The notes under the pieces: generated by a model
What the model saw: the letters and a program-made list of their open reading frames with translations, nothing else
Database searches by the model: none
What the model was told of the DNA's origin: nothing
In this document: positions 7,054 through 43,745 of the stretch, one piece after another
Layout of the letters: each line of letters starts with the position of its first letter
Position numbering within the stretch: the first letter of the stretch is position 1
From: a virus
Taxonomy: Duplodnaviria > Caudoviricetes
Length of the DNA: 48,853 nt
Strand: one strand, 5' to 3'
Virus record (IMG/VR): IMGVR_UViG_3300027265_000001
Span: 1-48,853 of that record
Translations under genes and position numbers: made by a program

Positions 7054-8124
7054 ATGATCCTAACAGCACGACATCCCGAATTAGACAATGAAAGGTCCTA
7101 TCTAGCTAGCGGAGTGCTAGCTCTAACCACATCTACCCCTCTGAAGAGCGCGGTAGGCATTGAAATAGGCGATTATGTAGTAATGGGCTATCCCGGTCGT
7201 GAAAAGACCGAGATCGTGCTTATTACGGGTAAGGCTAGTAATACTATTCAACATGCGGCCCTACAATTTAGTCACAATATTGATACTCCAATTACTATCA
7301 TCAAATATAATAAAGTTCGTTTTTATGAGTGTGAGACTGAAAATGGTGACTACACCTTAATCGCCACACTTGATATAGATATTGATGACCTTGAGACCAG
7401 ATACGAATACAATGCCGGTATCCCTACTAATTACTACAGAGCTGACTACCTAAATGTAGAGTCTGGTATCTACTCTGAACTATCTGATCCTTTAATCGGT
7501 TCAGGTTACACCAGTGCTTCAGTAGCTAAAATGATTGAGGCTGTCAGGGTTCTTGTCGGTCAGGTTCCATCAGATGATGAGATTATCGCAATGCTTAATC
7601 TAGCCGAAGCAGCTGTTTACGATTATCGTGATAAGTGGTATTTTGCTAAAGAGCGCAAAGTCTACACACTAGAAGCTGAGACCGGTCGCTATCCTTTGCC
7701 AGCTGATTTTAAGATGAGCTCACGCGAAGTTTACCATATTAAAAATGCGACTACTCTCGTTCAACTCGACCGTAGGGACTACAATGCTTATATGACAGAT
7801 TTCTACTTGGCCACTCCATCAGACGACCTTGGAATCTGGACCATCGATGAGGCTACTGAGGAAGTAGTCTTCAACCCTACCCCAGTGTTGGGTGTTGGGA
7901 CCGTAGAGTTCGGTTATTGGGCTGGTCCATCGATTCTCAAGGAATACACTGACATTACGAAGGTTCCTTCTACAAGGTTCCACGTTTTCTTCGCAGCATC
8001 AAAGATTGAAGCATCTAAAAAGAACACTGACCAGTCTAAACTATATTGGAATGAGTCTCAGGACGCACTAAGGAGTCTAGGTAACAAGCGATATAGCGGC
8101 AACCAGTCATTCGGAGTAGCTTAA
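7054..8124 (+). CDS. Head-tail adaptor (tail tubular protein A-like C-half) with an extra N-terminal domain
   Basis: AAGGAG RBS; 'YTLEAETGRYPLPADF...VVFNPTP' adaptor-like motifs; precedes the nozzle-like gene. Confidence 0.6.
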   Translation: MILTARHPELDNERSYLASGVLALTTSTPLKSAVGIEIGDYVVMGYPGREKTEIVLITGKASNTIQHAALQFSHNIDTPITIIKYNKVRFYECETENGDYTLIATLDIDIDDLETRYEYNAGIPTNYYRADYLNVESGIYSELSDPLIGSGYTSASVAKMIEAVRVLVGQVPSDDEIIAMLNLAEAAVYDYRDKWYFAKERKVYTLEAETGRYPLPADFKMSSREVYHIKNATTLVQLDRRDYNAYMTDFYLATPSDDLGIWTIDEATEEVVFNPTPVLGVGTVEFGYWAGPSILKEYTDITKVPSTRFHVFFAASKIEASKKNTDQSKLYWNESQDALRSLGNKRYSGNQSFGVA

Positions 8125-8126
8125 AC

Positions 8127-11664: not shown

Positions 11665-11695
11665 GTAATCGTGTTCGGCAGAAACAGGATTAAGA

Positions 11696-18963: not shown

Positions 18964-19380
18964 ATGAATTTTAGTGGAATATTTCCTGATCCGGTCAATG
19001 ACTTACTAATCATAATCGTGGGGTGTATAGCAGTATACTTCGCATGGCGTTCTGGCAAGAATAAACAGATCACCGAAGCTGTCTCCAACTACGAAAAGCT
19101 AACGGCGTCTCAGGACAAAGTCATCGCTCAGTTGAAGGACGAGATTGCCAGTATCCGAGTGGATTTTGAGAAGAGATTGGACAAATCCGAGAAAGAAAAC
19201 CACGATCTTCGCGCTCAGGTAAATCAACTGATTGGCGAGAACAAGGGTCTTACTAAACTCGTTACCCTTCAGGATCCATTCAGAGACAAAATTGACATTA
19301 TTCTAGGACATCAACAACAGATTTTTGATGCCGTTTGCAAGGGCGGAGAAAAAACTATTGCTGCCATAGAGGAAAAGTAG
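18964..19380 (+). CDS. Holin-like membrane protein (one TM helix plus coiled coil)
   Basis: N-terminal hydrophobic helix; directly upstream of the endolysin. Confidence 0.6.
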   Translation: MNFSGIFPDPVNDLLIIIVGCIAVYFAWRSGKNKQITEAVSNYEKLTASQDKVIAQLKDEIASIRVDFEKRLDKSEKENHDLRAQVNQLIGENKGLTKLVTLQDPFRDKIDIILGHQQQIFDAVCKGGEKTIAAIEEK

Positions 19381-19406
19381 TATAGTTTAACCAACAAGGA
19401 GGGATT

Positions 19407-20210
19407 ATGGCCCAAAGAGAACCAGAAGGCGTAATATTCTACCTCGAAAATGGTAGAGAAAAAGAAGCGAGACTCGTTGATGATCGCATGTCGATCTCGG
19501 GAGACTCTTTCTACTGGTATCAGGTTGATGAAAACCTAGCTAGATGGAAATACTTTACGGTCCACCACTCCGCTGGAAATAATAATGAAACTGCTGAACA
19601 GATAGCCCAAGGCCACCTTGCACAAGGTTGGAGCGGAATTGGCTATCATTTTGTTATCACCAGAGATGGCGTCATCCACTATGTTGGAGATCTTGGCACA
19701 TGGCGTGCTAACGTTGGCGGCATGAACGATGTCTGTATCGGTGTTCTGCTAGTCGGTGATTTCAGATTCGGCAACCTTCCAAGCGATGCTCAATACAAAG
19801 CTGTAAACGCTCTCTACAGAGAGTTCGTAGCAGACGGACGATTCCCGGGCATCAAGGGTCCTAGCGCCCTTAAATTCCATCGTGAGTTCAATGCTACAGC
19901 TTGTCCGGGTGATGTGAACAAGGATCACTGTATCAATGGTCTTCCAGTTGTATCACAGCCAAGCACACCGGTGATACAACCTCCAGTAGTTGTAACACCT
20001 CCGATAGTTGTTGAAACACCAAAGACACCTATCGAAGTCATCCTTCCTCCAAAAGAGGCCGAGGTATATGTTCCACCAAAAGATGTTACTGTCCAAGAAG
20101 GTAACAAGCCAGTTGTGCTTACTCCGGGTGAGACTCTGGACTTTGTCGCCTTTGTGATGATCCTAAAGAACCTGTATAAAGCAATATTAAGAATACTAGG
20201 GAGGGGATAA
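19407..20210 (+). CDS. Endolysin, N-acetylmuramoyl-L-alanine amidase (Amidase_2/PGRP-like)
   Basis: VHHSAG, GWSGIGYHFVI, HREFNATACPG zinc-amidase motifs; Pro/Val-rich tail ending in an amphipathic helix. Confidence 0.9.
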   Translation: MAQREPEGVIFYLENGREKEARLVDDRMSISGDSFYWYQVDENLARWKYFTVHHSAGNNNETAEQIAQGHLAQGWSGIGYHFVITRDGVIHYVGDLGTWRANVGGMNDVCIGVLLVGDFRFGNLPSDAQYKAVNALYREFVADGRFPGIKGPSALKFHREFNATACPGDVNKDHCINGLPVVSQPSTPVIQPPVVVTPPIVVETPKTPIEVILPPKEAEVYVPPKDVTVQEGNKPVVLTPGETLDFVAFVMILKNLYKAILRILGRG

Positions 20211-20211
20211 T

Positions 20212-20496
20212 ATGAATCCTACACAGATGCTCGCGGTGATAGTTGCCGCAGGACCAGTCATTTCGGTTATTACCGAAGTGCTTAAACGTTTACCAGAGGT
20301 TCCGGTTAACTCGGACAACGCTACGGTCGTTGTTTTAGGACTGGCGACCATAGTTGTTTTATTGCCAGCTTATGTTGGCGGGGGGTTGACATTAGAAAAT
20401 GCACCTGTCCTCGCTCTAAGCATTACAGCTACCTTTGGTGTAGGCCTTGGAGCCTACGGGTTAGTTAAGACTTTAGTAGCGAAATTTCGCCGCTAA
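20212..20496 (+). CDS. Holin (three predicted TM helices)
   Basis: Hydrophobic 94-aa protein with a basic C-terminus, after the endolysin. Confidence 0.7.
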   Translation: MNPTQMLAVIVAAGPVISVITEVLKRLPEVPVNSDNATVVVLGLATIVVLLPAYVGGGLTLENAPVLALSITATFGVGLGAYGLVKTLVAKFRR

Positions 20497-20634
20497 GACT
20501 GATCCTCGATATTCAGTCGTGAATTGAGGGGAAATTCATGACCGAAAGGTCAAGAAATCAAAGAGAGCTCACTGCGGCCATACAGTGAGCTCTCGGCCAT
20601 ATATAGGAAAAACTAAGAGGGGAAAACGTAAAAA

Positions 20635-21006
20635 ATGAACAGTCTAGATGTCTCCGCGGCATGCTATATAGAGGGTCAGTTCCCGGGAATGAATAATATC
20701 GTTGCCGCTAGCAAGACTCACTACGCAGTTTACTCAAAAATGAAAAAGGAAAACACCGAAATCTTTCGGTTGGCAACGGCTAGGTTCCCGAAATTCACAA
20801 AGCCGGTTACAATTACTTTTACATGGTTCTACAAAAATATCAGGAGGGACCCTGACAACATGATGGCGGCCCAGAAGTTTGCCCTAGATGGCATGGTGGC
20901 CGCCGGAGTGATCCCGAATGACACTGGCAAGGAAATAGCCTGTCTTAATCATATATTTATCCATGGAGAGAAGAACGGTGTCCAGATCGAAATTGAAGAG
21001 TTTTGA
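20635..21006 (+). CDS. rusA: RusA-like Holliday junction resolvase
   Basis: RRDPDN..AAQKFALDGMVAAGVIPND motif. Confidence 0.85.
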   Translation: MNSLDVSAACYIEGQFPGMNNIVAASKTHYAVYSKMKKENTEIFRLATARFPKFTKPVTITFTWFYKNIRRDPDNMMAAQKFALDGMVAAGVIPNDTGKEIACLNHIFIHGEKNGVQIEIEEF

Positions 21007-21029
21007 CCCCCGTGCTATAATATATATAG
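20993..21029 (+). promoter_or_regulatory. Promoter TTGAAG-N17-TATAAT with the TATATATAG tail and no downstream + strand ORF
   Basis: TGCTATAATATATATAG matches the recurrent motif. Confidence 0.55.
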
Positions 21030-21079
21030 TATTTAGTTTTCGTATCAGGGGCGGGGCCCCTCTTTCTCACCTACCCTCC

Positions 21080-21106
21080 AACCTCTAGCGCAAGCTAGGG
21101 GTTTTT
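21080..21106 (+). terminator. Intrinsic terminator at the convergence of the two genome arms
   Basis: AACCTCTAGC-GCAA-GCTAGGGGTT followed by T residues. Confidence 0.8.
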
Positions 21107-21413
21107 AATTTAGGATGTCGTTGAGTGCTTTCGTTACTTTGGTGGATTTAGTTCTGGCCGGTTTATCTCTAGTGGGGCGGATCCTCACTGATTTGATTGG
21201 CGTTTTGTATTCTTCTTCCCACGAGAATAGGATGAGACCGAGATCGTGGGCTCGTTCGATGTTGGCGTGGACCCAGTCGTGATGCCTACGGCAAAGAGGG
21301 CACTTATTGGCTTCTCTGTCCGAGCCTCCTTCGCTCCTTTGCTTGATATGATGCCTATCTGTAAAAAGTGCGCCACAATGATCTACAACACACGGTCTAT
21401 ATTGACTTATCAT
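21105..21413 (-). CDS. HNH endonuclease
   Basis: C..C, DRHHIKQRSEGGSD..N.CPLCRRHH motif. Confidence 0.85.
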   Translation of the reverse strand: MISQYRPCVVDHCGALFTDRHHIKQRSEGGSDREANKCPLCRRHHDWVHANIERAHDLGLILFSWEEEYKTPIKSVRIRPTRDKPARTKSTKVTKALNDILN

Positions 21414-21543
21414 CGGTAGTATTCTTGAAGACTACTCGATCTGTATATTCAGCTTTTTTACCCTCGTTCCAGTTTGACACCGGTCTGATGTAGCCGACTA
21501 CACGCGAATAGACCTCACATTTAGTTCTTGATTCGTTAGACAT
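21397..21543 (-). CDS. Stand-alone NrdD-type glycyl-radical domain (48 aa)
   Basis: CEVYSRVVGYIRPVSNWNEGKKAEY.DR matches the class III RNR C-terminus; AAGGGGGAG RBS before the ATG at 21543. Confidence 0.85.
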   Translation of the reverse strand: MSNESRTKCEVYSRVVGYIRPVSNWNEGKKAEYTDRVVFKNTTDDKSI

Positions 21544-21565
21544 ATCTCCCCCTTCTTTTATTAAC

Positions 21566-21608
21566 TGTGGATAAACCCTTGACAAAAGTGACACAAGTGT
21601 GGTATACT
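21566..21608 (+). promoter_or_regulatory. DnaA box followed by a sigma70-type promoter (TTGACA-N18-TATACT, extended TG)
   Basis: TGTGGATAA 21566-21574; TTGACA 21579-21584; TGGTATACT 21600-21608. Confidence 0.75.
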
Positions 21609-21614
21609 GCTAAT

Positions 21615-21707
21615 CCCTGAACAGGTGTTCGGCATTTACCCACCGCATAGGGTCAGCGGCTATAGGCGTTCGAGTGAAAGTTCCCCTCTCACTGGAGCGT
21701 CTTTTTT
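21615..21707 (+). ncRNA. Candidate small RNA of about 90 nt
   Basis: Lies between a consensus promoter and an intrinsic terminator (AGGCGTTC.AGTGA...TCACT.GAGCGTCT-TTTTT, 21664-21707); carries GGTGTTCGGCA. Confidence 0.6.
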
Positions 21708-21766
21708 GTTGGTTGGGGGCCCGCGGGATTACCACGGACCCCCTCAACTCAGCTGGGATCGCCAGC

Positions 21767-21946
21767 CTAGCTGTCCGGAGTGTGGACACCTCGTGCGCGC
21801 TCGTTGCGAGACCTGATGGCCTGAGCGGACTCGGAGGCCTTTCGGGTGAACTGCCGCCCCGCCATCTCAGCCATATAGAACCGATAGGTGGAACAGGTCG
21901 CCCCGCACGTCTTGGACTTCTTGCAGTGATGGCAAGGATGTTCCAT
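21767..21946 (-). CDS. Small Cys-rich protein (59 aa, MEHPCHHCKKSKTCGATC...), below the ORF-track cutoff
   Basis: Strong AGGGAGGTG RBS; open to the TAG at 21767. Confidence 0.65.
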   Translation of the reverse strand: MEHPCHHCKKSKTCGATCSTYRFYMAEMAGRQFTRKASESAQAIRSRNERARGVHTPDS

Positions 21947-21948
21947 GA

Positions 21949-22227
21949 TTACACCTCCCTAGGAATTGGGACTCGGTGATTCCAGTCCACCTGAGTCTGA
22001 TGATAACAACACATGCTAGAGAACTCACACGGCCCGTGATGGCAAAGGCGGCGGAGACCGTCCTTGCAGCGAGCCATGAAATGCCCGTGATACTGGTGAT
22101 GACGAGAGTAGCTCATCTCCGTGACCTTGTTGAAGTTCCGATACAGCTTCTTCGGCCAGTAGAAATGGTGCTTGTCTTCACCCCCTCGCATCAGTTTCTG
22201 ATGCTTTTTGCTACCCTTCTTAGCCAA
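21949..22227 (-). CDS. His/Cys-rich hypothetical protein (possible HNH-like zinc fold), likely TTG start
   Basis: GGGGGTGAGAGGG before TTG; DKHH...HHQYHGH...C..CHH..C. Confidence 0.55.
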   Translation of the reverse strand: MAKKGSKKHQKLMRGGEDKHHFYWPKKLYRNFNKVTEMSYSRHHQYHGHFMARCKDGLRRLCHHGPCEFSSMCCYHQTQVDWNHRVPIPREV

Positions 22228-22332
22228 CCCTCTCACCCCCCGGTGATCGGTTTGAGATATTCCCCACATCTCAAACGGTGTATTGTGCTACCTATAATTA
22301 TACGCCGTTTTAGAGCTTATATAAAGTTAAAA

Positions 22333-22407
22333 TGGATCCCGAGGTAGGGGTCGAACCTACAATACAGAGCTTCAAAGGCTCCTGCCTTACCATTTGGCTA
22401 CTCGGGA
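22333..22407 (-). tRNA. tRNA-Gln(UUG)
   Basis: Cloverleaf TCCCGAG/CTCGGGA, loop CT-TTG-AA, TTCGA T-loop, encoded CCA. Confidence 0.9.
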
Positions 22408-22410
22408 ATA

Positions 22411-22496
22411 TGGTGTCAGAGGGGAGAGTCGAACTCCCAATCCGCTGAGGGCACTAGTTTCTAAAACTAGCGTGTATACCATTCCACCACTCTGAC
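22411..22496 (-). tRNA. tRNA-Leu(UAG)
   Basis: GTCAGAG/CTCTGAC, loop TT-TAG-AA, long variable arm, A73, CCA. Confidence 0.92.
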
Positions 22497-22498
22497 AT

Positions 22499-22576
22499 TG
22501 GTGGGCCCTGAAGGACTCGAACCTTCAATCCGGCGGCTTTTGAGACCGCTGCGTCTACCAGTTGCGCCAAGGGCCC
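22499..22576 (-). tRNA. tRNA-Leu(CAA) with a short variable region
   Basis: GGGCCCT/AGGGCCC, loop CT-CAA-AA, 6-nt variable region, A73, CCA. Confidence 0.85.
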
Positions 22577-22577
22577 G

Positions 22578-22653
22578 TGGTCGAGATGCTGGGATTCGAA
22601 CCCAGATGGCCTCCGTCACAGGGAGGAATCCTAGCCGTTAGATGACAGTCTCG
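22578..22653 (-). tRNA. Atypical tRNA with a GUG (His) anticodon
   Basis: Loop CT-GTG-AC, CTGGG-TTCGAAT-CCCAG T-arm, CCA; bulged acceptor stem. Confidence 0.75.
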
Positions 22654-22690
22654 AAAAAAGTCCCCCGCGGACATAGAACATCCCCGGGGG
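22654..22690 (-). terminator. Terminator-like hairpin after the lysozyme gene, abutting the tRNA cluster
   Basis: CCCCCG.GGA...TCC.CGGGGG-AC-TTTTTT on the - strand. Confidence 0.55.
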
Positions 22691-22781
22691 CAACAGAATT
22701 GAGCTCTGGTCTTACACTTACGATGCCAGATATTCATATACCCAAGCGAAGGCGATTCCCCAAGCTAGCAGCTGATACATT

Positions 22782-23378
22782 TTAGTGCCTCCCCAGTATG
22801 GCGTATGCGTATTCTATACGTCTCGCTTCGTTACAATCTCCGCATCTTTCGAATTGATTCTGGAAGATGCGCGTTGCAGCGGTTACGTCATCTGGAAGGT
22901 TAATGTTACTCATCTCACTTACCATGAATGATAACTGAGTGCTCAGGCTATATGGATTCTCCATCGACATGAGGTTAGATTTTCTACCTCCGGTCCATTG
23001 GGCCAGACCATCACCGGATGTTTGGAAGCCGTGCTCTTGTTGCAGGTTCCCCATAATCCCAGCAGTTTGATTCCTCGTAAATCTTACGATCAGGAAGTCC
23101 CAGACTGCTTGTTCATTGTCCGCTACGATGGCCTTAGGAACCACATAGACGGGGCTAGGAACTACTTTTACCGGTTCAGGCTTAGGTAGTGGGTTACCTA
23201 CCGGGAAAGGCGCCGTTGGATAGGTCGCTTCCGGCCGGTAGGTTATTTCCTTGTAAATTGGTGCTGGGTCTAATGTTGGTGTTTGTTTAGGTTGATTACT
23301 CGCGAAAACCGCTCGTGCTATGCCGATTGCCAGTATTGCTACCAGTGCTACGGTCAGCCAAAATAGTTTTTTACTCGT
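22782..23378 (-). CDS. Membrane-anchored or secreted phage-tail-lysozyme family muramidase; probable ACG start
   Basis: AGIMGNLQQE, GLAQWTGGR and FQNQFERC motifs; frame open upstream of 23144 through a Pro-rich linker and signal/TM segment to an ACG preceded by GAGGGG. Confidence 0.75.
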   Translation of the reverse strand, partial: TSKKLFWLTVALVAILAIGIARAVFASNQPKQTPTLDPAPIYKEITYRPEATYPTAPFPVGNPLPKPEPVKVVPSPVYVVPKAIVADNEQAVWDFLIVRFTRNQTAGIMGNLQQEHGFQTSGDGLAQWTGGRKSNLMSMENPYSLSTQLSFMVSEMSNINLPDDVTAATRIFQNQFERCGDCNEARRIEYAYAILGRH

Positions 23379-23463
23379 GTCTTCCCCTCTTTTTAGTGAT
23401 AGCCACCAGATGTCTTGTATGATCCGGCTGTTCTCCCTCGCAGTTAGTTAAGACTATATATAA

Positions 23464-23820
23464 TTATACAATCTTTGCTGCTTTTTTTCTAGGTTTTCGG
23501 GGCTCGACCAGTGGCATGAACTCGCCAATTTTGTATACTTGAGAGTATACTTCTCGCCCTCGGACTTCCGCTACTAATCGGCATTCCTCAACAATATCTG
23601 AATCCAGATCCTCATTCATCCAGATGGTTACGACTGTCCCGGTAACAAGCTTTTGAAGCCAGTAAGGAAGCTTTCGCAACCTTGGTCCAACATAACTATT
23701 ATAGAGAAGTTTTCCCATCTGTTTGGCGTGCGAGATCATACTCTCCGATGCAAATAGCTTGTCAGCAAATGCAGCTTCAGATTTGGCGATTGCTTTTTGT
23801 AGCCTAGTTTCCTCCTTCAT
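23464..23820 (-). CDS. Hypothetical protein
   Basis: GAGGG RBS; operon context. Confidence 0.7.
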   Translation of the reverse strand: MKEETRLQKAIAKSEAAFADKLFASESMISHAKQMGKLLYNSYVGPRLRKLPYWLQKLVTGTVVTIWMNEDLDSDIVEECRLVAEVRGREVYSQVYKIGEFMPLVEPRKPRKKAAKIV

Positions 23821-23828
23821 GCGTCCCT

Positions 23829-24107
23829 CTACAATTCTATGTTACGGACCATCTCTTCGATCCGGGCGTTATTGCGTAGGGCTTTGTCGTTCATCTCTTC
23901 TAATGATCGACCAACATCGGTCATCCTAGGATTGACTCCATTTTTGACATCAGGCTCTGGGGTTTGCTTTGATACTGGAGCTACCTTTCGCTCGAGAAGG
24001 CTAATAAGCTCACTTTGAGATGCCAGAGTGCTCTCTATCATCATGAATACTTCTTGTATTTCCGATACTCTTTCTACTGCATCACAACCTTCATCTATTC
24101 TAGCCAT
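23829..24107 (-). CDS. Coiled-coil hypothetical protein
   Basis: AGGAGG RBS, TAATG coupling. Confidence 0.7.
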   Translation of the reverse strand: MARIDEGCDAVERVSEIQEVFMMIESTLASQSELISLLERKVAPVSKQTPEPDVKNGVNPRMTDVGRSLEEMNDKALRNNARIEEMVRNIEL

Positions 24108-24352
24108 TATTTTGCCTCCTGATCGTAGATATTTACTCCACCGGCCTGAGCCTGAAGGAATTTACCTAGTCTCATTACAGCATCCTCAACGTGGCGATAA
24201 GCCAGTGTCAGATTAGCCATTTCTTCTCCGCGGTCCTCGATACCATCTACTTCACAATTATTGAGATAGCTTTTGATCTCGTTGATTTTTACTCCGAATG
24301 CCTTACCTTCAGCACGAAGCTCGCTGATTTGATCTTTAACTGATGGTCCCAT
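24107..24352 (-). CDS. Small helical-hairpin protein, possible Acb2/Tad1-like nucleotide sponge
   Basis: 'RGEEMANLTLAYRHVEDAVMRLGK' resembles the Acb2/Tad1 hairpin helix; AAGGAG RBS. Confidence 0.45.
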   Translation of the reverse strand: MGPSVKDQISELRAEGKAFGVKINEIKSYLNNCEVDGIEDRGEEMANLTLAYRHVEDAVMRLGKFLQAQAGGVNIYDQEAK

Positions 24353-25310
24353 TTTGGATCTCCTTTTTTATTTGTTTTAACACGTCTGGGCTGTCTTTCA
24401 GCCATTTTTTTGCCGCTTCTTTGCCTTGCGCCACGGCTTCATCCTGATACTTCACCCAAGCACCAGACATCTTCACGATGCCCTTTGCGATGGCTAGGTC
24501 AAGTATTTCCCCTTCTACCGAGATGCCCTCATTATACATGACGTCAAATTCTGCGGTTTTGAACGGCGGGGCGACTTTGTTTTTCACAATTTTGGCGTAG
24601 ACGCGGATGCCGTTAATCCCTTCGTCTATCTTACGGGCTCGTAGTTCAACCCGCACGGAAGCAGCAAATTTCAATGCCATGCCTCCCGGTGTAACTACAG
24701 GGGAACCGTAACCTCCAATATTCATTCGGGTTTGGTTAATGAAAATAACCACCGTATTGGTCTTGTTGATAATGGCCAGCATCTTTCTGGTAGCCTGACC
24801 CATGAGTCTTGCCAGAAGCCCCATGTGCGAATCCCCAATGGCCCCTTCAAGCTCGGCTCTTGGAGTAAGCGCTGCAACTGAGTCGATAACAATGACTCCA
24901 ACCTTACCTGATTTAAGCATGTCCTCACAGATTTGAAGTGCTTGTTCTCCGCTGTCAGGCTGGGATATGAGCATACTATCAGTGTCGAGTCCGCACTTTT
25001 GAGCGTATGAAGGATCAAAAGATTGTTCTGCATCAACAAGGAGCACACCTTCGCCGAGCTTTTGTGCTTCGGCCATCGCATGATAAGCAAGCGTTGTCTT
25101 TGCGGAACTCTGAGGTCCATATATTTCGACAATTCGTCCGCGAGGGAAACCGCCTCCGATAGCGTCATCGAGCGATACTGAGCCACTTGATAGGAAAGAA
25201 ACATCCATGGAATGCTTATCGCCAAATGACATGATTGAGCCTTTACCGAACTTTTTCTCGACACCTTGTATTGCATCTTGCAGTTCCTCCTGTAGGTTAC
25301 TTTTTGCCAT
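24336..25310 (-). CDS. recA: RecA recombinase (start MAKSNL)
   Basis: GGFPRGRIVEIYGPQSSAKTT, VIVIDSVAAL, FINQTR, TPGGMALKFAASVR, KNKVAPPFK. Confidence 0.97.
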   Translation of the reverse strand: MAKSNLQEELQDAIQGVEKKFGKGSIMSFGDKHSMDVSFLSSGSVSLDDAIGGGFPRGRIVEIYGPQSSAKTTLAYHAMAEAQKLGEGVLLVDAEQSFDPSYAQKCGLDTDSMLISQPDSGEQALQICEDMLKSGKVGVIVIDSVAALTPRAELEGAIGDSHMGLLARLMGQATRKMLAIINKTNTVVIFINQTRMNIGGYGSPVVTPGGMALKFAASVRVELRARKIDEGINGIRVYAKIVKNKVAPPFKTAEFDVMYNEGISVEGEILDLAIAKGIVKMSGAWVKYQDEAVAQGKEAAKKWLKDSPDVLKQIKKEIQNGTIS

Positions 25311-26410: not shown

Positions 26411-27568
26411 TTACCCCTTCACTACTGCGAGAGGAGTGAGCGTGTGGACGATCTCCACTAGGTCCTTCTGATTCTCCATTACTACCTCGATGTCTTTGTA
26501 TGCTCCCGGTGCTTCATCAAGCTGGTGGATGCCACGGACCCCGTGTAGCACTCCCATTGCGTCAAGCGCGGCTACTTCAGCTTCCAAGTCAAGGCGTCTC
26601 TCAGCATCTTTTCTGCCCATTTTTCGTCCTGCTCCATGAGAACAACTATTAAAAGACTCATGATTACCCAAGCCACGAACAATATAGCTTTTGCTTCCTT
26701 GGGAACCCGGGATAATCCCGATATTTCCTGCACCCGCATAAGTGGCTCCTTTCCTGTGAACCATAACGTCTTTGCCGTAGTGGTGCTCCATCTTGGCATA
26801 GTTATGGGCGATGTTAATAATCTCATCGAACTCAGCCCCAAGCTCTTTGCTCTTAAAGATGTCGATGACGGCATTCATCATGTGCTTACGGTTGGCTAGA
26901 GCGAATTCAACACAGTAGTTCATGTCCATGATATAGTCTTTGCCTTCGACTGAATCCAGTGGCAGGAAGGCTAGCTCATGTTTCTTTGGAATTTGTGAAA
27001 AATACTGTTCATTTAATTTCACAGCTATCTTGTTGTGATGGTCTGCGACTGTTTTCCCTAGGTTACGAGAACCTGAGTGAATCATAATCCAGATGTGGCC
27101 ATCTTCATCCTTCTGGATCTCGATGAAGTGGTTACCACCTCCGAGGGTCCCGAGAGACTTCCGGGCGTTGTTGTATTGCTCTGGTATCACTGACCCGAAA
27201 TCTAACTTAGGCATCAGGGCCTCGTCCTGCATTTCTTGGTGCTTGTTGAATCCCAGAGGAATCGCATTACGAATCTCTCCAACGATTTCTTTCAGCACAT
27301 CGATGTCTAGGTAGGTAAGTGAAGTCCGGACAGCACACATCCCGCATCCGATGTCTACACCGACTGCGTTCGGGATGACTACGCCCTTGGTAGCGATAAC
27401 GCCACCGATAGGCATGCCGTATCCTTGATGGCTATCTGGCATGATGGCAACGTGATGAAGGATGAAGGGAAGCTCAGCCAAGTTTTTAGCTTGGGCCATT
27501 GCCCCGTCCTCAATATCATCCAGCCATAGGTAGATTGGGAATCTTGTTTCTTCTGCTATTACTTTCAT
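26411..27568 (-). CDS. rtcB: RtcB RNA ligase
   Basis: MPDSH, VGVDIGCG, GTLGGGNHFIE, HSGSR, HNY, HRKGA, SHGAGR, DEAPGAYK. Confidence 0.97.
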   Translation of the reverse strand: MKVIAEETRFPIYLWLDDIEDGAMAQAKNLAELPFILHHVAIMPDSHQGYGMPIGGVIATKGVVIPNAVGVDIGCGMCAVRTSLTYLDIDVLKEIVGEIRNAIPLGFNKHQEMQDEALMPKLDFGSVIPEQYNNARKSLGTLGGGNHFIEIQKDEDGHIWIMIHSGSRNLGKTVADHHNKIAVKLNEQYFSQIPKKHELAFLPLDSVEGKDYIMDMNYCVEFALANRKHMMNAVIDIFKSKELGAEFDEIINIAHNYAKMEHHYGKDVMVHRKGATYAGAGNIGIIPGSQGSKSYIVRGLGNHESFNSCSHGAGRKMGRKDAERRLDLEAEVAALDAMGVLHGVRGIHQLDEAPGAYKDIEVVMENQKDLVEIVHTLTPLAVVKG

Positions 27569-37033: not shown

Positions 37034-37070
37034 TTGACATCTATATACTATATAATATATACTATATATA
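37034..37070 (+). promoter_or_regulatory. Promoter for the ncRNA/tRNA-Pro/terminase transcript
   Basis: TTGACA 37034; TATAAT 37051 and TATACT 37058. Confidence 0.65.
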
Positions 37071-37356
37071 GAACACTGAGCCAATTTAACGATTTGCTGT
37101 ATAACCAGTGCTCTGCTATGTGGGTCTGAGAGTTTGGCTACCCCCTTTCTCTCGGGCACACTACCATGAAGCGAGACCCCCGCAGGGGGATCAACGATGG
37201 GGAGGGTCCATCCCGCTTCACCTTAAAAATTTAGATTCTGGGCTTCAGGCGGGGTGATAGGACAATCCTCATGAGATTGTCTGAAATTGGTAAATCAGCC
37301 GTTCGCGGTTGTGGGGAAGTCATGAGCCTAGGGCACCCCACCTAAAGCCCAGAATC
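37071..37356 (+). ncRNA. Block of structured non-coding RNA elements
   Basis: Four consecutive closed domains, including TGAAGCG/CGCTTCA and GATTCTGGGCTT/AAGCCCAGAATC stems; no ORF. Confidence 0.6.
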
Positions 37357-37360
37357 ATAT

Positions 37361-37437: not shown

Positions 37438-37471
37438 AAATTATAACTAAACAACAGAAAGAAGGGTTCGG

Positions 37472-42547: not shown

Positions 42548-42563
42548 AAGAAAGGGGTTCGGC

Positions 42564-43092: not shown

Positions 43093-43500
43093 ATGCTAAG
43101 AAAATGCCAAACATGTGGGACTCGGTTATTTGGAAGGAAACGAAAGTATTGCGACAAAAGATGCTATCCTTCCATGACTTATGCTGCACGAAAGAAGTAT
43201 ACAGGCCCGTATAGTCGCACCGAGACTGGACGATACAAATCATACCAGCAAGGAGCTAAACTAAGGGGTGTAGAGTTCAGTTTAACAGAAACACAGTTTA
43301 AGAGTCTTTGGCAGCTACCCTGCTCATATTGTGGAGATCCGATCGATACCATAGGAATAGATCGTGTGGATAATTCTATTGGATATATCGTTAGTAACAT
43401 CACCCCTTGTTGTGGAGTTTGTAATAGGATGAAGCAACAAAAGACTGTTGCAGAGTTCAAAAATCATGTTAAAAAGATGGTGGACTACATGAAATTGTAG
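43093..43500 (+). CDS. HNH endonuclease (homing-type)
   Basis: CQTC..YCDKRC N-terminal zinc; CSYCG..GIDRVDNSIGY...NITPCCGVCNRMK. Confidence 0.88.
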   Translation: MLRKCQTCGTRLFGRKRKYCDKRCYPSMTYAARKKYTGPYSRTETGRYKSYQQGAKLRGVEFSLTETQFKSLWQLPCSYCGDPIDTIGIDRVDNSIGYIVSNITPCCGVCNRMKQQKTVAEFKNHVKKMVDYMKL

Positions 43501-43556
43501 TATAATATATAGTATAGACAACGCACATTCCACAATTTGCACCTAGACAACACAGA

Positions 43557-43651
43557 GTGTTCGGCAACTATCTGTAAGCTATTTTAGCTTCTGAAGGACT
43601 GCCGAACACCCTTCAGAGCTATAACGGCTTCCAGATAGGAGCCGTTTTTTT
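43557..43651 (+). promoter_or_regulatory. Attenuator-like leader with alternative terminator and antiterminator folds
   Basis: Downstream of TATAAT 43501; long hairpin 43568-43638 overlaps terminator 43623-43651; GTGTTCGGCA/TGCCGAACAC complementarity. Confidence 0.7.
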
Positions 43652-43660
43652 ATGTTTATA

Positions 43661-43729
43661 AACCGCCTAAGCCTTCACAAGAAGGAGGGCAGGAATAATC
43701 TAACCGCCTAAGCTCGCACAGAGAGGGCA
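43661..43729 (+). repeat. Tandem hairpin motif AACCGCCTAAGC...GAGGGCA, two copies
   Basis: Copies at 43661-43691 and 43702-43729. Confidence 0.8.
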
Positions 43730-43745
43730 AAGAAAGGACAGTAAG

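Follow-up and report, generated by a model that had tools for sequence, protein, structure and literature searches.

A predicted small RNA of a tailed phage with complementarity to the capsid-operon leader loop: a candidate sponge for virion-gene control

We analyzed the complete 48,853-nucleotide virus record IMGVR_UViG_3300027265_000001 (Duplodnaviria; Caudoviricetes), referred to below as the window, which is a whole circular phage with a 127-base repeat at its ends. Family searches with PHROGs and Pfam identified genes for the terminase, portal, major capsid protein, endolysin, primase-helicase, RecA, and RtcB, and seven tRNA genes are present. The virion genes occupy the + strand from approximately 36.6 kb round to 21.0 kb, the replication genes lie on the - strand, and a repeated TATAATATATATAG motif of the extended -10 type is found at the starts of the + strand operons. 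Phage late genes are normally activated by proteins, namely antiterminators, sigma factors, and activators. Among the 70 ORFs scanned with PHROGs and Pfam, none was assigned to the sigma factor, RNA polymerase, or antiterminator families. The RecA protein shares 54-60% identity with cellular proteins from several groups and indicates no single host.

Two further regions of the genome are described here for completeness. RtcB (26411-27568, - strand) and the seven tRNAs, together with a weak, below-cut-off Acb2/Tad1-like match (24107-24352, - strand), suggest counter-defence genes. On the + strand, approximately 300 non-coding bases between a promoter motif and tRNA-Pro (37060-37360) fold strongly (-116 kcal/mol), contain a 23-base inverted repeat, and have no Rfam match at the gathering score.

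The predicted small RNA (21615-21707, + strand, ~93 nt with an inferred start) comprises a 5' hairpin with a seed, a core, and a terminator. Its sigma-70-type promoter (21579-21608, TTGACA-18-TATACT with the TG of an extended -10) matches the consensus at 11 of 12 positions and was the best of 14 promoter-like sites in the 19000-24500 region. The intrinsic terminator-like element (21664-21707) consists of a hairpin at 21664-21702 and a U run to 21707, with a fold z score of -2.6 for 21650-21707; the hairpin has bulges and was missed by a simple terminator scan. These signals bear out the initial annotation, which had described a near-consensus promoter and a terminator bounding a + strand unit of about 90 nt. 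A + strand ORF of 63 codons at 21625 reads through the terminator. Just beyond it lies a second GC-rich hairpin (21712-21745), and G001, a related phage, also has one, of different sequence. Another promoter motif at the end of the RusA gene is followed 60 bases on by a terminator (21016-21110, + strand); the arrangement has no counterpart in G001 and, judged by its sequence, could encode a second RNA of ~85 nt.

Three copies of the unit were available for comparison: the window, G001, and L599, which is a 3.3-kb contig with an RtcB neighbour. G001 carries the unit at the matching place with the promoter, seed, core, and terminator; L599 has the promoter, core, and terminator and no seed, its longest complement being 5-6 bases. 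The promoter in both is of the TTGACA-17-TAnnnT form, and the fold z scores of the three copies are -2.1, -4.7, and -5.9. The core (21638-21660) is identical in 22 of 23 columns across the three copies; in folding models it could form a small pseudoknot, with no covariation available as a test. The terminator loop (~21681-21687) is C-rich and anti-Shine-Dalgarno-like, with CCCCT kept in all three copies. The seed (21624-21634), which overlaps a weak 5' hairpin (21617-21632), is present in the window and G001 and absent from L599.

The conservation of the core in all three copies vs that of the seed in two raises an explanation in which the invariant core and C-rich loop carry out the main job of the RNA, through protein binding or the blocking of G-rich ribosome-binding sites, and the seed is a minor, clade-specific addition. 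In the window, the C-rich loop pairs over 9 bases with the Shine-Dalgarno regions of the terminase and RusA genes and over 11 bases with the Shine-Dalgarno region of the primase-helicase gene, and L599 carries a second C-rich loop. However, these matches fail to carry over to G001, and the seed was kept although the 5' ends have otherwise diverged between the window and G001. In addition, none of 401 small genomes sampled around G004 carried the core on either strand with up to 3 mismatches. We regard this explanation as improbable, while the core and the C-rich loop probably have a second, unexplained job.

Rfam contains no family for the small RNA or the capsid leader; only tRNAs reached the gathering score, and the best E values in the two regions (1.8 and 0.58) belonged to unrelated families. 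Among annotated phages, nothing better than E 0.5 was obtained for either region. Scanning metagenomes with the core returned two matches, L599 and the window itself, and scanning viral contigs returned three, G001 and two chance matches; among the matches listed for looser pattern scans of viral contigs, only chance ones were seen beyond the known relatives. An expression check of three runs gave only short matches, mostly to tRNA, and speaks neither for nor against transcription. On the - strand of the core (21649-21611) and at the equivalent places in L142 and L599, a micro-ORF of 7-12 codons starting with Met-Arg-Trp-Val is present in all three copies, with no nearby Shine-Dalgarno site when read by eye. 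Small Cys/His-rich ORFs adjoin the unit in all three contigs (21767-22269, - strand, in the window); searches of PHROGs, Pfam, and the atlas assigned them to no family, and atlas searches with ORFs 21949 and 42564 likewise named none.

A perfect DnaA-box consensus, TTATCCACA, occupies 21566-21574 (- strand), with 4 nt between it and the downstream -35 element, as had been annotated. Exact boxes number five in the window compared with 0.43 expected, and only 50 of the 38,381 distinct 9-mers reach five copies. Both the position of the box and the enrichment of the 9-mer would fit the proposal that DnaA occupancy of 21566-21574 sets the level of the RNA and ties late expression to replication, which is compatible with the other explanations considered here. 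In contrast, the box is found at the small-RNA promoter in one of three copies and is absent there in G001 and L599, the promoter has a single box, two of the five boxes are inside ORFs, and the phage encodes its own primase-helicase. The unit coincides with the maximum of the cumulative skew, at the junction of the two arms, a position that mostly reflects gene direction. The suggested link to replication therefore finds no support in the other copies of the promoter, and we consider it very improbable; from the sequence comparison, the box is probably incidental or lineage-specific.

The leader of the scaffold/capsid operon (+ strand) has an extended -10 type promoter motif at 43501-43514 and an intrinsic terminator at 43623-43653, 93 nt upstream of the scaffold-like ORF 43746; both are kept in G001 and G002. 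Folding adds to these a cis site (43557-43566) and a long hairpin (43568-43638; z score of -7.1 for 43562-43646). The apical loop of this hairpin (43598-43610, 12 nt and the first stem base; 11-nt loops in G001 and G002) displays a word complementary to the seed. Pairing of the cis site with the word would permit the terminator, and the long hairpin would act as the antiterminator by taking the 5' arm and loop of the terminator. Apart from the window, three records contain the leader and represent two distinct sequences (G001 and G002/G003), so that counts of three leaders below refer to the window, G001, and G002. G002 and G003 are fragments without the small-RNA region and the L599 contig does not extend to its capsid leader, leaving the window and G001 (n = 2) as the only genomes with both parts. 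An endonuclease VII/HNH-like ORF (43093-43500, + strand) directly precedes the leader promoter in the window only, and the relatives align on both of its flanks, as they would around a mobile insertion. The interval from the leader terminator to the scaffold start codon (43656-43745, + strand) contains a short repeated stretch with two copies starting ACCGCCTAAG; the relatives also have hairpin-like sequence at this place.

All three distinct leaders can fold in two ways, either as the cis helix plus the terminator or as the long antiterminator hairpin, with the word unpaired in a loop of 11-12 nt and an energy gap between the folds within ~6 kcal/mol. The two leader helices tested pair in 57 of 57 cells with one double change in each: the cis helix, through which the guide is complementary to its own upstream leader site, keeps nine pairs in all three sequences and has one double change, and the other is in the outer stem of the antiterminator hairpin. 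This covariation (two double changes, equalled in 46 of 500 shuffles) gives weak support by itself with three sequences. The cis helix holds with a probability of at least 0.96 until the 5' arm of the terminator emerges. In contrast, at full length the free leaders of the window and G002 favour the loop form, and that of G001 favours the terminator form (0.91). Since the cis helix holds early even where the completed leader prefers the loop form, termination likely rests on a kinetic trap. With the word blocked, the three leaders move toward the antiterminator by 2.1, 6.3, and 8.3 kcal/mol, and G001 turns from 0.91 terminator to 1.0 antiterminator. Among distant capsid relatives, no leader profile match was better than E 0.62, and none of 96 distant capsid loci passed a structure descriptor on the capsid strand, whereas the same descriptor finds the three known leaders.

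The seed GGTGTTCGGCA at 21624-21634 is, as the initial annotation stated, an exact complement of 43600-43610, and it is not unique in the window. Shuffled RNAs gave a complement to the leader as long as the observed one in 1 of 1000 cases for the window (11 bases) and 9 of 1000 for the second phage. The loop differs between the window and G001 at two positions; the seed matches both changes and the cis site one of the two, and one of the matched changes adjoins an indel and could be chance. Cognate duplexes have energies of -21.5 and -21.6 kcal/mol compared with -16.9 and -16.2 kcal/mol for the crossed ones, a gap of ~5 kcal/mol, so that cognate specificity for the leader guide is seen in two of two genomes with both parts, with the seed absent in L599. 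The cis pairs are at -18.7 and -19.8 kcal/mol, and the trans duplex is 2-3 kcal/mol stronger before opening costs.

When regions from -200 to +40 of homologous genes were ranked, with pairs overlapping the antisense of the core dropped, the capsid leader came first among 35 gene pairs, with one and the same segment of the RNA involved in the window and G001; the second-placed pair owes its rank in part to cis overlap. Scans of each whole genome placed the loop only 5th in the window, where the best 60 of 843 helices were rescored, and 10th in G001, where the best 80 of 1695 were rescored. Burial of the seed in structure, which had been named as damaging to its proposed role, is partial: the seed is partly paired in the 5' hairpin, and opening it costs 5.3 kcal/mol in the window and 12.8 kcal/mol in G001 (9.4 if the core self-pairs). 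The net seed-loop energies after opening are -10.6 kcal/mol (window) and -5.9 kcal/mol (G001), and in the window a site in the leader of the LysM gene binds equally. We consider it fairly probable that the seed of the small RNA pairs with the capsid-leader loop, and, on sequence grounds, the unit is real and conserved, belongs to no catalogued RNA family, and has a credible co-varying partner. Mimicry of a 5S rRNA loop by the loop word was set aside, as three of four 5S genes share only a 5-7 base stretch, which is too short.

The complementarity can also be read from the opposite strand. A convergent promoter-like site (22297-22325, - strand), matched in G001 by a TATAATATATATAG site at the corresponding place, would give a transcript that crosses the small-RNA locus and carries its full antisense. 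In an arrangement like that of OOP, this transcript could be the trigger that covers the cis site, with the + strand RNA as its antisense inhibitor or as a damper of the convergent operon. The promoter-like site is upstream, duplexes of the - strand word (21634-21624) and the cis site reach -19.0 and -21.3 kcal/mol with opening costs of 5.7 and 4.3 kcal/mol for the word, and in L599 (one of three copies) the 3' end of the RNA overlaps the end of a convergent ORF. In the window and G001, however, the RNA overlaps no confident gene, the matched tenth-position change fits the loop rather than the cis site, and the sequence-invariant core is left unaccounted for. We give this possibility little credence, slightly less than a main role for the core.

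The seed 10-mer occurs exactly at 11671, 21625, and 43557, and its complement at 43600; ORF 42564 has a copy at its start codon that differs by one base. The pattern GKGTTCGGC, which was picked after the data were seen, has five matches in the window compared with 0.42 expected (0 of 100 shuffles), and all five are outside called ORFs or at a start codon. In three of three phages, the LysM gene (11696 in the window) has the motif in its leader, inside a hairpin over the Shine-Dalgarno site; this copy (11671-11680, + strand) is likely a target of the capsid-leader loop. In the window this site binds the loop at -21.2 kcal/mol, as well as the seed does, and in G002 it mismatches its own loop (-12.8 kcal/mol); with the loop bound, the ribosome site was easier to open in two of three phages, an inconsistent effect. 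The motif between the Shine-Dalgarno site and the start codon of ORF 42564 (42555-42563, + strand) is likewise a likely target, and GGTTCGG precedes the homologous start in G001 and G002. A possible third target is GGTTCGG immediately before the start codon of ORF 37472 (37465-37471, + strand). Overall, GGTTCGG stands just before the start codons of two genes in the window, three in G001, and one in G002; in each phage, the gene that follows the portal is among them. The placement of the motif in the LysM leader and at start codons suggests, from sequence, that the leader loop is a guide with several targets. A conserved stretch with TTCGG is also found just before ORF 8127 in all three phages (8102-8126, + strand); it overlaps the end of the upstream ORF and may be coding.

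Some of these sites mismatch the loop at an outer position (42555 in the window and the LysM site in G002), while the core of 6-7 bases is invariant at all sites. This invariance could instead reflect a phage or host protein that binds GGTTCGG RNA, covers the cis site, and controls translation at the start regions; the small RNA would then be a protein decoy and the loop complement a by-product. The small Cys/His-rich ORFs flanking the unit would fit such a protein, but none belongs to an RNA-binding family in PHROGs, Pfam, or the atlas. Moreover, all three leaders present the complement unpaired in an apical loop, which a protein would not need, and beyond the invariant core, too, the seed follows the loop. 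Protein binding is thus an unlikely explanation, marginally less so than a main role for the core.

The initial annotation had proposed that the small RNA is a trans trigger that outcompetes the cis site and opens capsid transcription, with a decoy as its alternative. A trigger of this kind, a natural analogue of the engineered STARs, would bind the word on the nascent leader and break or pre-empt the cis helix, so that the leader folds into the antiterminator and transcription enters the capsid operon. The covariation of seed and loop between the window and G001 would be expected here as well, the equilibrium folds of all three leaders move toward the antiterminator once the word is blocked, and the trans duplex, opening costs aside, is the stronger by 2-3 kcal/mol. 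However, the cis helix is intramolecular and immediate, and the RNA gains a toehold of one base pair and must open its own hairpin. Unless something else held it back, the strong host-type promoter would presumably have the switch open from the beginning, and the copies of the motif in start regions are unaccounted for. In the folding predictions, the cis site, at a distance of 35 bases, captures the word as soon as it appears. Of the earlier proposal, the conserved pairing with its two matched changes and the effect of word blocking hold, and the competition with an early-formed cis helix is where it falters; as the cis helix forms first (at least 0.96) and offers a one-base toehold, the decoy alternative fits better. 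A trigger remains the less likely sign of the effect and, on balance, we doubt it.

Because the small RNA has only this one-base toehold, we prefer the reading that it is a target mimic, or sponge, of the capsid-leader loop that holds back virion-gene expression, to which we assign a probability of approximately 0.4. The leader would fold first into the cis helix with the terminator, or else into the antiterminator that exposes the word in its loop, and released or read-through leaders would go back to the loop form. Until the word has been transcribed, opening the cis site costs only ~3.5 kcal/mol; being nearly free over the 35-base interval, the cis site is a natural place for a trans factor, and the factor that matches it is the loop of an earlier leader. 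Refolded loops may thus pair in trans with the cis sites of new leaders during this interval, giving self-amplifying read-through, and may also pair with the LysM leader and the start-region sites. The small RNA, made from the best-matching host-type promoter of the region, would set a threshold that lasts until loop RNA is in excess over it or is cleared of it by the convergent transcript, which would remove the small RNA. The kinetic argument for the sponge draws on general knowledge of RNA, and the direction of the effect on the capsid operon leans toward a brake over a trigger. In its most general form, the circuit would be an RNA-only late-gene timer, in which the antiterminator loop turns on, in trans, the operon it belongs to and also adjusts other virion genes, and a separately promoted RNA with a co-evolving seed flips or gates the loop. 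We hold this more general proposal tentatively, as less probable than the sponge itself; if true, the circuit would be the natural equivalent of RNAs engineered to activate transcription at an intrinsic terminator.

Host sRNAs that block Rho-dependent termination are known. For phages, the literature covered, to which most subscription papers do not belong, yielded no natural RNA that opens an intrinsic terminator in trans, and this partial coverage likewise yielded no natural phage example of a mimic combined with a self-activating attenuator. Among the systems covered, the closest relatives in logic are the CI RNA of P4 with seqA and seqC and the c4 RNA of P1/P7, where a leader-derived RNA acts as a guide to its own upstream leader site and others and controls premature termination, as proposed here (PMC4825925, PMC12197685). 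In P4, however, pairing leads to termination and immunity (PMC4825925), whereas here pairing in trans is predicted to give read-through of virion genes, with a separately promoted mimic in addition. A family search of both regions with Rfam gave no match to CI or c4 in sequence and structure. The prophage sponges AgvB (anti-GcvB) and SprY (anti-RNAIII) are described as phage small RNAs that mimic or bind the guide of a regulatory RNA, which is also proposed here (PMC12197685). The signals expected of a sponge, namely a promoter and terminator around a non-coding unit, are present at the sequence level in three of three copies of our predicted transcript. AgvB and SprY target host RNAs, whereas the predicted partner here is the attenuator loop of the phage itself and the pairing co-varies within the phage clade (PMC12197685).

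The STARs are described as trans RNAs that stop an intrinsic terminator from forming, and the small RNA would do likewise if it were a trigger (10.1101/022772, PMC5648800). In the present case, binding disfavours the terminator in equilibrium folding of all three leaders. The STARs are, however, engineered and bind the terminator at its 5' stem, using long linear toeholds, whereas the seed binds a loop word with a one-base toehold (10.1101/022772, PMC5648800); the word bound lies 13 nt upstream of the terminator and not in its stem. The 2015 preprint states that before STARs no natural transcription-activating sRNA was known (10.1101/022772). In antisense attenuation of pT181 and pIP501, co-transcriptional RNA pairing chooses between two exclusive leader folds, as here, although there the antisense RNA is cis-encoded, fully complementary, and causes termination (PMC8383071); our partner is 22 kb away, pairs over 10-11 bases, and has a predicted opposite sign. 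The OOP RNA of lambda is also short, has its own promoter, and is convergent to a phage transcript, but it overlaps the cII mRNA and drives RNase III decay (PMC12197685), whereas the RNA here is intergenic in two of three copies and has a distant, co-varying partner. Terminated leaders become regulatory RNAs in the cases of StxS (PMC7547250) and rnTrpL (PMC6614838), as we infer for the 43513-43653 leader; the parts of these two sources covered describe no self-activation or dedicated mimic, in contrast to the circuit proposed here. By analogy, this circuit may be viewed as a variant of antisense-controlled attenuation whose logic resembles that of P4 CI, plasmid attenuation, sponges, and STARs.

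Both partners of this RNA-RNA switch can be named, each in less than 150 bases, which makes the circuit directly testable. Should the pairing open the intrinsic terminator, a mechanism described as synthetic would have a natural version; should the small RNA be a sponge, the phage would be directing an RNA against an attenuator of its own. Based on these results, we suggest that the small RNA likely times virus-particle production, as a decoy or, less likely, as a trigger.
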